The notes under the pieces were generated by a model. It did not search any database, was not told the origin of the DNA, and was given only the letters and a program-made list of their open reading frames with translations. Below are positions 2,653 to 6,661 of a stretch of DNA of 28,524 bases, in pieces. Source of the DNA: Escherichia coli (lineage in GTDB: Bacteria > Pseudomonadota > Gammaproteobacteria > Enterobacterales > Enterobacteriaceae). The stretch lies in the NCBI RefSeq assembly GCF_003334765.1, contig NZ_QOWT01000043.1, one strand, 5' to 3'. Both the position numbers and the translations under genes were made by a program. Every line of letters starts with the position of its first letter. The stretch's first letter is position 1.

Positions 2653-3056
2653 TGAACCGCCCCAGGTTTCTTGGAGAGTGTTTTATCTGTGAACTCAGGC
2701 TGCCAGATCATTGTTTCCGACGGAAGCCTGGCGAAGGATATCGTTACTGCGGCGCAGTTCACGATTTTCACGCTCCAGCTCTTTCAGACGCTGACGTTCA
2801 GCGGTGGTGAGCCCTCCATCACCGCCCCCGGTATCCCGCTCATGCTGGCGACCCCAGACACGCAGAGTCTCCGGTGTACAGCCAATCTTTGGGGCAATGG
2901 AACAAATTATCGCCCATTATGAGTCATATTCGCCTGACTTTCCAGAACTATACGAATCACCCTATGACGAACTTCGGGGGAAAAACGAGTATTTTTAGTC
3001 ATCCTGTTTACCTCTTTCTCAGGAAGTTTAGTCTCCAGGATTTCCGGGGCGGTTCA
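2653..3056 (-). mobile_element. Internally deleted (404 bp) IS629-like IS3-family derivative
   Basis: Starts with TGAACCGCCCCAGG (inverted-repeat end) and ends ...CCGGGGCGGTTCA. Retains about 70 bp of the orfB-side end fused to the orfA region. Same orfA lesion as the full copy at 5354-6661. The junction lies at a short ggaagc microhomology. Confidence 0.75.
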
Positions 3057-3066
3057 CTACTCCTAT

Positions 3067-3633
3067 TCAAAATCGTTTCTTGAAATCAGAAAGGGCGTAT
3101 TTCAGATCAGAACCACAAAGAGCTCTCTGGGATTCACTTAATACATCCTTAACAGGAATAATCCCTTTTTTTCTTGAGGAATAAAACGCCATACCATCAT
3201 CATTTTTTAATCTCCAGTCTCTCGATATATCAACCTCACCAAGGTATCCGGTAACGACCAGACTATGATACCCATGTTCATTCATAATTTCTTTCAGCCG
3301 TTGTGCGAAGGCAGGGGTTCTCGAATGTATCCCCGAGGCGCAAGTCAATACTCTGATATCTATGAAGTTCTTTGGTAAACGTCTATTCATTAATAGAGTG
3401 GCTAATGCTAAGGGATTCAACGTTGGCCCAGTTGCTGAACCTGTCCCAATAACTGATGTGTTGCCATGAGCAACGATGTATAACGTATCGCTCGATTTAA
3501 GAAAGGATAAAGGTGTTTTGTGTGAAGCTTTCACACCATAACATTCTTTATTCTTCATTTTCTGATACTTAACTTCGGCATCAAGAAAAGTGTCATTTTC
3601 ATCCATTTGAAATGGGAAAAAGTAAATAATCAT
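3067..3633 (-). CDS. Hypothetical protein, 188 aa; possible small enzyme, function unknown
   Basis: Intact ORF in an AT-rich segment. Contains ...LYIVAHGNTSVIGTGSATG... followed about 50 residues later by ...IDIRVLTCASG... (ordered His then Cys after hydrophobic strands). Its stop is 10 bp from the mini-IS end. Confidence 0.5.
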   Translation of the reverse strand: MIIYFFPFQMDENDTFLDAEVKYQKMKNKECYGVKASHKTPLSFLKSSDTLYIVAHGNTSVIGTGSATGPTLNPLALATLLMNRRLPKNFIDIRVLTCASGIHSRTPAFAQRLKEIMNEHGYHSLVVTGYLGEVDISRDWRLKNDDGMAFYSSRKKGIIPVKDVLSESQRALCGSDLKYALSDFKKRF

Positions 3634-5353
3634 ATTACCTCGACATCAGAAAAAATTAAAATAATCCACATGCGGAAAGCTCTGAGCAGGAAACATCACC
3701 AAGGACGAAACCTCCTCTCTCTGTAAAGGATAGTTATCCATCCGGGGCAACCTATACCTTTACCATAACTTCCGGCAGAGTCACCTTGCTACTATGTTTA
3801 AGCCCTGCCGGGCAAATATGTCACTCAACGACCTTAGAGAGTTTTCTGTCAAAAGCAGCAGAGGCTAGCAGTTACTCTCTTATCTCTTATCTCCAGTCTT
3901 GAGTGCGAAGAGGCACATAACAAAGTTATGTGTTACTGACCACTCTTTCATTCAGGATGCTTAACCCCGTTATATGCATACAAGAAATGGGGCGCCAGAC
4001 TGCCGTCTGCAGTTCCATACCGCTAGATAAATATAGACACAGGCAGAGTGTCCCACATAATGCCAGTCTACAGTCGGATGACTCAGTTTATTAGTCTCAT
4101 TACACAGAGATACATAGCCCAGAAATAATCGCTGATCACTACCTGTTTTCAGGCCCAAGTCATCTGCAGATCAAGTATGTTATATTAGACAAAATAGTTA
4201 ATTAAGGAGAAAACCAATGCTATACCGATACACGTAAAAGGTACTCCACTGCCAGGATGATTGCCGGCGTCACATCCCAGCGTCGTCTCAAAAGAGGTAA
4301 CAGTTCATTAAGGCTTCTGATATTACGTTCCGTTAATACACGCACGCCATTCTTTGTCAGGTGGAATCCAGACTGATTACAGGTAATAGTGATATGACAA
4401 ACATCATTGCCAATATATACGGCCTCCATAGCTCTGAACCTAACATTCCAGAACCAAGAATATGGGGATGATTCAGACAAAAAAGACGCCTCTGGATATC
4501 GTTAAATAACGGATTCATAGTCAAATCACAATAGAATATTTCTCACCAGAACTTCATCTTATAATCATCTGTATAAGAAGTTAAACCTAGAGAAAAACAG
4601 AGTCGTCCTGTTGCTTCAGATATCGCAGTAACACTCGTCCTTCCGACATAGATGTTATTCCGTGACGGAACAGACTGACGTCTCTGGTTTCAGGCATCAA
4701 TGACATAACTCGGCTCCCTGGGTTGGTCTTGTTTCTGCATCACCACTTTAATAAATTTAAAGTGAGGCTCATATTTCAGCAGCACATTCTGAACATGTCT
4801 CCGGGGATTAGATTTCAAATCACGAAGTAGGCTACGCATAGCCAGCACTGCCTTAAGGCAGTGAACCTTCTGGACAACTGATCTCCGGCATGAAATCGTT
4901 CATCTTGCGGAAGAACAATTTTCTTCTGTGCTCCTCCGGTATGTAGGTCTGGTTTCAGATGCCCCCTTGTTTTTGAGCTCTCATCCTGAAATGAACTACT
5001 CATGCCTTCACCAATGAGATCTTCACTCCAAGAGCACGTTTCCGCAAAATGTACCCTCCTTCCATACAGATTTGCCCTAAACGATTATAGGGCAATGCTC
5101 TGAAAATACTCAAGTCAAATGCATATCAGGTTATACAATGGGGATTTCTATTATTTATCTCAAGAAATTCTGCAAAAAGCAGAATTATAAAAACAAAGAT
5201 GACAGTTAACGTGGTATTTTAGAAAATTCTTCTGGTAAACATTTCCAATGTGGACCGGATATGAGGAGCGAAATTTTTGCTTGAAACCATAAAGCCGATG
5301 ATAAATAGCGTGGGCTTTCAGAGCCATGAAACGTAACTATGCTGAGTATTTTC

Positions 5354-6661
5354 TGAACCGCCCCGGGTTTCCTGGAGAGTGTTTTATCTGTGAACTCAGG
5401 CTGCCAGATCATCATTTCCGATGGAAGCATAATAAGCTTTTTCTGCTTCTGCCGGTGGGATATGGCCCAGCCTTTCCAGCAATCGTCGATTGTTATACCA
5501 GTCCACCCACGTGAGTGTGGCCAGCTCCACTTCTGTCCGGTTTTTCCAGCTCTTACGGTGTATTACCTCCGCTTTGTAAAGGCCCTTGATGATCTCTGCC
5601 ATCGCGTTGTCATACGAGTCACCAGTACTCCCTGTTGATGCCAGCAGTTTTGCTTCTTTTAGTCGCGCCTTATAGGCCAGTGACACATACTGAGAGCCTT
5701 TATCGCTGTGATGGATGGTGCCAGACGGACGACGGGCCCACAACGCCTGCTCCAGTGCATCCAGCACGAATGTCGTTTCCATAGACGATGAGACTCGTCA
5801 CCACACGATGTATCCGGCAAACACATCAATGATGAACGCCACATAGACGAAGCCCTGCCATGTGCTGACGTAAGTAAAATCAGCCACCCACAGCTGGTCA
5901 GGTCGTTCTGCCACGAACTGACGGTTTACGCGGTCGCCTGCGGCAAAGGCTTTCCGGCTGATGGTCGTACGGACCTTTTTACCCCGGAGAACACCGGCAA
6001 GTCCCATAACCGCCATGAGGCGCGCCACTGTACATCTGGCCACCCTGATTCCTTCCCGTAACAACTGGCGCCAGACTTTACGCACACCGTACACCTGATG
6101 ATTTTCATCGTATACGCGCTGTATCTCTCTCTTCAGCCAGTCATCGTGCTGCGCACGGGAACTGCGTTTATCAGGATGATGTCGCTGTTGCTGACAGTGG
6201 TAATTCGTTGACGGGGCGATATGCAGTTCACTGCATACCGGTCCGACCCCGTACTGCTCACGCAGCTTATCCAGCAGGGCATTATTTTTTCCAGAGGCGG
6301 TCGAACTCCGCCTTCGCAAAATAAGCGGAAGCCTGGCGAAGGATATCGCTACTGCGGCGCAGTTCACGATTTTCACGCTCCAGCTCTTTCAGACGCTGAC
6401 GTTCAGCGGTGGTGAGCCCTCCATCACCGCCCCTGGTATCCCGCTCATGCTGGCGAACCCAGACACGCAGGGTCTCTGGCGTACAGCCAATCTTTGGGGC
6501 AATGGAACAAACTACCGCCCATTGTGAGTCATATTCGCCTGACTTTCCAGAACTATACGTATCACCCTATGACGAACTTCGGGGGAAAAACGAGTATTTT
6601 TAGTCATCCTGTTTACCTCTTTCTCAGGGAGTTTAGTCTCTAGGATTCCCGGGGCAGTTCA
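5354..6661 (-). mobile_element. IS629-like IS3-family insertion sequence (1308 bp), transposase inactivated
   Basis: Ends TGAACCGCCCCGGGTTTCCTGGAGAGTG... (5354) and ...CCCGGGGCAGTTCA (6661). Minus-strand orfA starts MTKNTRFSPEVR; orfB pieces match the IS629 OrfB as I recall it (YGVRKVWRQL...LWVADFTYV...; ...HHSD.GSQY...YDNA...). Confidence 0.85.
5396..6607 (-). pseudogene. IS629-like transposase orfA/orfB, disrupted
   Basis: orfA reads [31 protein letters not shown] where the conserved sequence continues in the +1 frame (EYDSQW...[18 protein letters not shown]...). orfB is split into 5798-6376 and 5396-5782 by an additional break around 5783-5797. Confidence 0.7.

Follow-up and report, generated by a model that had tools for sequence, protein, structure and literature searches.

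Insertion sequences of the IS1203/IS629/IS3411 isoform group (IS3 family, IS3 group) combine an orfA/orfB layout with an A-run slippery site, an ALIL pseudoknot, a DDE transposase with an rve domain and terminal inverted repeats that begin TGAACCGCCCCGG..., all of which recur at the locus described here in an element of the same length class (1308 vs 1310 bp). Isoforms, as defined by ISfinder, usually show ~95% or more nucleotide identity to the named element. Internal deletion of insertion sequences also gives rise to bacterial MITEs, and true MITEs are present in many copies with target duplications. Decay within the IS629 family has been documented in E. coli O55:H7 and O157:H7, in which deleted and truncated derivatives include, on the O55:H7 chromosome, a copy "with a unique internal deletion" and several truncated copies elsewhere in the set (Rump et al. 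2011, PMC3271280). The locus analyzed here belongs to the same family and exhibits the same type of decay, but it differs from those derivatives in the deletion itself, in its host, the pheU island of EAEC, and in the retention of both ends.

The stretch of DNA under study (the window, 28,524 nucleotides of E. coli contig NZ_QOWT01000043.1) represents, in reverse complement, the aai/T6SS portion of the E. coli 042 pheU island; the aai T6SS island of EAEC 042 is AggR-regulated. Two elements, a full copy and a mini copy, lie in the same orientation 2.3 kb apart, between tssH (clpV) and a VasL-domain gene of the aai cluster, with the coordinates and ends assigned in the first-pass annotation (Table 1). 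The full copy matches positions 4911586-4912893 of E. coli 042 (NC_017626.1) at 100%, where it is annotated as 'IS3 family transposase; frameshifted; internal stop', and RefSeq lists the mini copy under 'transposase; frameshifted; internal stop; incomplete'. Both are pseudogenes in existing annotation, and their condition is ordinary transposon decay; the exact anatomy of the two pseudogenised insertion sequences, set out below, matters little beyond annotation. They are probably two non-functional relics of a single IS629/IS1203 lineage that descended from an already-defective ancestor and subsequently underwent further decay and rearrangement of their flanks.

Table 1. Features of the two elements and of the segment that they enclose (window coordinates).
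Feature	Position	Strand	Details
Full copy, defective IS629/IS1203-family (IS3 family) element	5354-6661	-	1308 bp
Mini copy, internal-deletion derivative	2653-3056	-	404 bp; full-copy positions 1-336 + 1241-1308
Segment enclosed by the two copies	3057-5353	.	2.3 kb; without counterpart here in related T6SS cluster
188-aa ORF in enclosed segment	3067-3633	-	
Plasmid-like stretch, inner flank of mini copy	3057-3795		94.8% identical to ETEC plasmid DNA
Stranded tssB fragment in enclosed segment	4908-5003	-	
Truncated orfA frame, full copy	6512-6607	-	31 aa; 1-nt deletion at about 6538-6539
Truncated orfA frame, mini copy	2907-3002	-	same 31 aa; shared 1-nt deletion at ~2933-2934
Second 1-nt deletion, full copy	6277-6278	-	GCCACTG>GCC-CTG; a few bases 3' of A6 slippery run
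In-frame orfB stop, full copy	5798-5800	-	TGG>TGA (GYIVGWRV > GYIVW*RV)
Extra stop, mini copy	2917-2919	-	CAA>TAA, in shifted frame
ALIL pseudoknot, frameshift-stimulating RNA element of IS3 family	6212-6327	-	full copy; Rfam RF01497; also in RefSeq annotation
GGAAGC hexamer, deletion endpoint	6327-6332	+	full copy
GGAAGC hexamer, other deletion endpoint	5423-5428	+	full copy
Single GGAAGC remaining at deletion junction	2722-2727	+	mini copy

The nearest intact relative of the full copy, which had been described as IS629-like, is the 1310-bp IS1203, an IS629 isoform, rather than any particular IS629 sequence; the 95.3% identity between them sits at the border of the ISfinder isoform rule, and other family subtypes range from 93 to 95% nucleotide identity. 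With a divergence of ~4.6% from the nearest intact copy, the element has no relative closer than 95.4% outside the island among 5,426 E. coli genomes. Both copies terminate in TGAAC...GTTCA, in keeping with the TG...CA ends of the IS3 family, although their inverted repeats differ from those of IS1203 at 2-3 positions each. The ALIL pseudoknot of the full copy scores 116.4 bits over the full length of the model, against a gathering score of 50, and the A6 slippery run and orfA stop are conserved even though the frames are broken; the mini copy does not contain the A-run/pseudoknot region. Once conceptually repaired, orfB translates into a DDE transposase with Pfam rve (2.3e-24) and HTH_21 (8.2e-18) domains, whereas a frameshift and a stop codon break up the form actually encoded.

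In contrast to intact members of the group, neither copy has intact frames. Alignment with nine other IS629-family sequences places a missing G of the CAGGGCG/CAGGATG motif at reference position 125 in both (CAGGCGAATATG). As a result, the two elements share an identical 31-residue truncated OrfA, the remainder of which (GEYDSQW...LWKK*) carries on in a different frame after the shift. Translation and alignment, both pairwise and to reference elements, thereby bear out the earlier observation that a 1-nt shift regains OrfA in each copy: the orfA frames are not intact and the short copy is related to the long one. The deleted base lies within a short GGG run, which is a plausible site of recurrent mutation. 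Three lesions in total distinguish the full copy from intact elements, and the mini copy carries two in addition to its large deletion. The two full-copy lesions other than the shared frameshift, namely the second 1-nt deletion, which occurs in this copy only and disrupts the frame of orfB, and the orfB TGA, were absent from the first-pass annotation. The extra TAA of the mini copy is likewise a further lesion beyond the shared frameshift.

The mini copy was proposed to be a derivative that kept both termini while losing about 900 bp between ggaagc microhomologies, and the alignment fully accounts for it in these terms. It matches the two terminal intervals of the full copy without gaps (14 + 4 mismatches, 95.5% identity), a similarity far above chance, and equals the element minus 904 bp, cut exactly between two GCTTCC (GGAAGC on the plus strand) hexamers. 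This hexamer occurs just twice in the full copy, both times at a deletion endpoint. The resulting junction reads GCTTCCGTCGGAAAC, with an ambiguity of 1 nt in the base beside it (GCTTCCG|TCGG).

Sequence comparisons of this kind are direct observations, from which we infer the order of events and the mechanism of the deletion. An ancestral copy would first have lost one G from the short orfA G-run, and the cutting of OrfA to 31 residues would have destroyed the OrfAB transposase as well. Descendants of this defective copy would then have reached the two places that they now occupy, one of them losing its interior via slippage or illegitimate recombination between the GCTTCC hexamers to leave a 404-bp shell with both inverted repeats. 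Further point mutations may have added two lesions to the full copy and one stop to the mini copy, in addition to altering the inverted repeats. Replacement of the inner flanks by rearrangement or recombination would account for the loss of any target duplications, and the pair would now bracket a patch of foreign and scrambled DNA. The copies today are presumably inert passengers, and any movement would require the action of a related transposase at their termini.

Neither element is flanked by a 3-bp direct repeat (tag/cta for the mini copy and ttc/aaa for the full copy), as noted at first pass and in contrast to the intact group. Target duplications accompany only 21 of 47 IS629 sites (PMC3271280) and two of six intact family copies sampled here. 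Because they are so often missing in this family, their absence is weak evidence by itself and should not be over-read. Joined-flank queries of 5,426 E. coli genomes returned no empty site for either copy, every genome with the flanks being occupied, so the original target sequence is unreadable. The suggestion of post-insertion rearrangement nevertheless gains independent backing from two comparisons, one to a related T6SS cluster and the other to ETEC plasmids. On E. coli M1 plasmid A, which carries the related cluster, the VasL-domain gene and tssH are adjacent, and homology to the window ends exactly at the outer ends of the copies (2652/2653 and 6661/6666). A stretch of 457 bp of the plasmid, which could be specific to M1, is replaced in the window by a 4009-bp block consisting of the mini copy, the 2.3-kb segment and the full copy. 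Within this block, the homology to ETEC plasmids begins at the end of the mini copy. IS-associated rearrangement had evidently reshaped the interval from tssH to the VasL-domain gene by the time the island spread.

The same comparison raises the question of whether the mini copy, the 2.3-kb cargo and the full copy arrived together as one composite-transposon-like unit, instead of by two insertions. The direct orientation of the two copies, the exact coincidence of their outer ends with the breaks in homology to the M1 plasmid T6SS cluster and the match of part of the cargo to plasmid DNA speak for such a unit. This scenario is nonetheless unlikely, since the outer flanks (tag ... aaa) do not constitute a duplication, 457 bp of the M1 plasmid is missing, the cargo also contains a fragment of the T6SS gene tssB, and the unit is not found at any other place. 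A Pfam search of the 188-aa ORF in the cargo gave no significant match. Scans of the whole block found no promoters above shuffled expectation; the terminator-like sites detected were all weak, and two fall within the inverted repeats.

Descent of the two copies from one lineage can be read from characters that accompany the frameshift. Three substitutions, A108, T149 and G285, flank the orfA deletion across about 180 bp and are common to all three deletion-bearing copies (the third is described below), yet occur in none of the eight other subtypes. The deletion-bearing clade is therefore set by four unique characters, and a single already-defective ancestor, as the first-pass annotation had it, is the best reading of the shared deletion and linked substitutions. 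Vertical descent alone does not explain everything, however. In a 12-bp block (positions 87-98), the full copy sides with the mini copy of the window, against the second mini copy of strain JE86; this shows gene conversion or recombination among copies, a process that could also have moved the frameshift between them. The full and mini copies differ at 4.5% of sites, and named subtypes of the IS629 family differ by 4-5% (PMC3271280), so the two are not recent sisters.

If conversion operates here, the frameshift might have been copied between neighboring elements, or have arisen twice in the G-run, and not have been inherited at all. The conflicting block, which lies 25-40 bp upstream of the frameshift and documents short conversion tracts, the visibly mosaic nature of the IS629 family and the position of the deleted base inside a GGG run all lend themselves to that account. 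It is quite improbable, given that A108, T149 and G285 lie on either side of the deletion in all three copies, spread over some 180 bp, such that conversion would require a long tract, and that the deletion was seen in no other copy in 5,426 genomes. Independent recurrence in particular was rejected, as it would not carry three linked unique substitutions. Inheritance from one defective ancestor consequently remains the preferred origin of the frameshift.

The third deletion-bearing copy is a second 404-bp element, which three genomes (JE86-ST05, JE86-ST02 and B-1109) carry at a single further locus, 20-25 kb away. It has the same junction, TAA and frameshift as the mini copy of the window, with an shiE fragment on one side and, on the other, an IS66 fragment adjacent to pic. 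Its flanks (cat/ctt) contain no target duplication, and both are interiors of sequences that run uninterrupted in other genomes. Over the first 102 bp, the element is identical to another IS629 subtype (C227-11/pCE10A type, from related EAEC strains), which gives it the look of a recombination or conversion product. For the right-hand flank of the mini copy in JE86, a widespread IS629::IS66 junction was considered and rejected, because the IS66 fragment is continuous in 042 and the spans do not fit a shared junction.

These features bear on the term MITE-like, which had been applied to the mini copy and which holds for its structure: it is short, lacks a transposase and keeps both parental inverted repeats, as bacterial MITEs do. 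The term does not extend to mobilisation, as true MITEs are dispersed in many copies with duplications and the 404-bp element is present at two loci, both inside one composite island, with no duplication and with a recombinant second copy. That it is a working non-autonomous element, a true IS629-family MITE mobilised in trans by a related transposase, is very doubtful: although both terminal inverted repeats with TG...CA ends are kept, a second copy with the same junction exists and an apparently intact IS629-family copy on the 042 plasmid pAA is a candidate helper, only two loci are seen in 5,426 genomes, the second copy looks recombinant and lies without duplication between flanks continuous elsewhere, and the inverted repeats of the window copies bear substitutions. 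It is correspondingly hard to credit that the derivative is trans-mobilisable and moved at least once after loss of its interior, to the shiE/IS66 junction, with the aid of a helper such as the pAA copy. Beyond E. coli chromosomes, no same-junction copy was recovered from PLSDB plasmids, where 14 apparent full-coverage matches are two-piece alignments with other spacings and other two-piece IS629 derivatives have different junctions. Exact junction and frameshift patterns gave 0 matches in GTDB species representatives, a search that would miss diverged copies and in which Shigella is folded into E. coli.

Decay of one defective lineage is also consistent with the distribution of the pair, which, unlike the wider isoform group, is confined to one island and marked by lineage-specific substitutions. 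The island occurs in 45 complete genomes out of 5,426 from E. coli, each of which has both copies, and every one of the 44-45 genomes with the flanks has both insertions. A count of 90 genomes was overstated by two-piece matches, the true junction and island occurring in about 45. A frameshift-specific 35-mer is similarly limited to 45 genomes, all occurrences being chromosomal and at 1-3 places in each. The structure is identical in all 45, which indicates that the arrangement became fixed ahead of the island's spread in E. coli, and the shared frameshift and 904-bp junction can be used as lineage markers for the island.

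Both IS629-family copies begin with TGAAC and end with GTTCA at the boundaries that the first-pass annotation had assigned to them, and local BLAST recovers no further copy in the window. A gap-free alignment pairs the mini copy with positions 1-336 and 1241-1308 of the full copy and shows 18 mismatches (16 of them transitions), as expected of the termini-retaining derivative that had been proposed. The roughly 900 bp earlier said to have been lost between ggaagc microhomologies measure 904 bp; the full copy contains GCTTCC (GGAAGC on the plus strand) only twice (sense positions 330 and 1234), and both sites coincide with the deletion endpoints. 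Because the junction reads GCTTCCG/TCGG, either the crossover lay one base beyond the hexamer or an A later changed to G.

The shared orfA frameshift is confirmed as well. Both copies encode an identical 31-aa ORF with the same 11-residue ending, the rest of OrfA lies in another frame, and alignment against intact IS1203 plus eight further members of the family places the loss of one base at reference position 125, within a CAGGGCG/CAGGATG/CAGAGCG motif. Alignment of the two copies with the reference element thus leaves orfA broken in each and the short copy related to the long one. Several lesions had been overlooked. The full copy has a 1-nt deletion (GCCACTG to GCC-CTG) located a few nucleotides downstream of the A6 slippery run and shifting the orfB frame, an orfB stop (TGG to TGA; GYIVGWRV to GYIVW*RV) and three changes in its left inverted repeat; the mini copy has a CAA to TAA change within the shifted orfA frame and two changes in its right inverted repeat.

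Coordinates of the two copies, the segment that they enclose and related loci
Feature	Location	Strand	Remarks
Mini copy	window 2653-3056	-	404 bp; RefSeq: 281-bp 'transposase; frameshifted; internal stop; incomplete'
Enclosed segment	window 3057-5353		2.3 kb
ORF, 188 aa	window 3067-3633	-	just inside mini copy
TssB (T6SS small sheath subunit) N-terminal fragment	window 4908-5003	-	32 codons; in enclosed segment
Full copy	window 5354-6661	-	1308 bp; RefSeq: 'IS3 family transposase; frameshifted; internal stop', with ALIL pseudoknot
ALIL pseudoknot	window 6212-6327	-	Rfam, 116 bits
Full copy in E. coli 042	NC_017626.1 4911586-4912893		100% match
Second mini copy	L004:2399-2802 (locus in E. coli JE86-ST05)		also in JE86-ST02 and B-1109
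Related T6SS cluster	L007:4097-8440 (locus in E. coli M1 plasmid A)		VasL-domain gene directly adjoins tssH
IS629-family pair	L016:1266-3814 (locus in pAA of 042)		full-length, apparently intact element, then a second copy head-to-tail without its first 68 bp

IS629 isoforms include IS1203 and IS3411, with subtype divergence of 4-5% (PMC3271280). The intact elements closest to the full copy (95.3%) carry the annotation 'IS3-like element IS1203 family transposase', the remaining intact subtypes stand at 93-95% identity, and a repaired orfB contains rve and HTH_21 domains. Only 35 records match the full copy at ≥99% and the next best match is 95.4%, so its lineage has no close active relative among 5,426 complete E. 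coli genomes. In reverse complement, the window corresponds to part of the 042 chromosome, where RefSeq orders tssM, tssH, an IS3 family transposase pseudogene with the ALIL pseudoknot, a tssB fragment, two hypothetical genes, a 281-bp transposase pseudogene and a VasL-domain gene. The locus in question, part of the 117-kb pheU island, is that of the AggR-regulated aai type VI secretion system (PMC2808357). Given the RefSeq labels, both copies were already known as annotated pseudogenes. The first-pass observation is accurate and its interpretation essentially right; both copies are products of routine insertion-sequence decay, fixed in one pathogenicity island.

A 35-mer across the frameshift, unable to seed on undeleted copies, matches 45 genomes only, always in the chromosome and at one to three places per genome. 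Within the 404 bp that the copies have in common, A108, the deletion itself, T149 and G285 unite the three copies bearing the 1-nt deletion (the window pair and the second mini copy of JE86-ST05) and are found in none of eight other subtypes; the 904-bp deletion, the TAA and G206 are further characters that both mini copies possess. These characters support descent from one already frameshifted copy, the ancestry that had been proposed. The signal is nonetheless imperfectly tree-like: a 12-bp block (87-98) is present in both window copies and missing from the mini copy of JE86, whose first 102 bp are identical to the C227-11/pCE10A subtype. Recombination or gene conversion has therefore taken place among these copies. 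That the frameshift itself spread in this way is the less probable account, and common descent is preferred.

The second mini copy, likewise 404 bp long, has the same junction (97.3% identity). Flanked by a fragment of shiE on one side and by one of IS66, beside pic, on the other, it is 20-25 kb away from the aai copy that the three genomes carrying it have also kept; its flanks (cat/ctt) form no target duplication. The shiE flank is the interior of a sequence uninterrupted in C227-11, and the IS66-fragment flank that of one uninterrupted in 042. Taken with the chimeric 5' end, these flanks fit recombination or conversion at a deletion junction no less well than transposition. PLSDB plasmids contain no copy with this junction, and scans of GTDB species representatives for exact patterns gave no matches. 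Plasmid pAA of 042 has a family member that appears intact (93.4% to the full copy), which makes a trans-acting helper conceivable; real mobilisation of the mini copy is nevertheless very unlikely.

Neither window copy has matching 3-bp flanks (tag/cta for the mini copy, ttc/aaa for the full copy), as first reported. Duplications are often missing in the IS629 family anyway, being present at 21 of 47 sites (PMC3271280) and in 2 of 6 intact family copies sampled here. The mini-copy flanks tag (2650-2652) and cta (3057-3059) are mutual reverse complements, a 1 in 64 chance that lengthens the inverted repeat by 3 bp; other copies offer no supporting pattern. Related genomes contain no empty target site, as the 44-45 that carry the flanks are all occupied, and the enclosed segment is island-specific to the same degree as flanks and insertions.

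Evidence for rearrangement comes from M1 plasmid A, whose T6SS shares about 70-85% identity with aai in matched stretches around the tssH/VasL interval and, with its VasL-domain gene adjoining tssH, is a useful outgroup for island history. Homology to the window runs up to 2653 and resumes from 6666, so that a 4009-bp block (mini copy, enclosed segment and full copy) stands in place of 457 bp of the plasmid. On its inner side, the mini copy adjoins a stretch (3057-3795) with 94.8% identity to sequence from >100 ETEC-type plasmids, the homology starting at the element end; this stretch includes the 188-aa ORF, whose DNA matches a hypothetical gene of >100 such plasmids at about 95% identity and whose product has no significant Pfam match (Peptidase_C80 weak, E=0.035). 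Together with the tssB fragment, these breakpoints show that each copy has a native outer and a non-native inner flank. This pattern is expected from IS-associated rearrangement after insertion, at which the missing duplications had been taken to hint, or from arrival of a composite unit followed by deletion. The tssB fragment is stranded between the IS copies, away from any tssC. Five island-bearing genomes (FORC_069, FORC_043, FORC_029, NCCP15648 and NCCP 13983) carry an extra IS3 between the two IS copies, which shows that insertions continue to accumulate in the enclosed segment.
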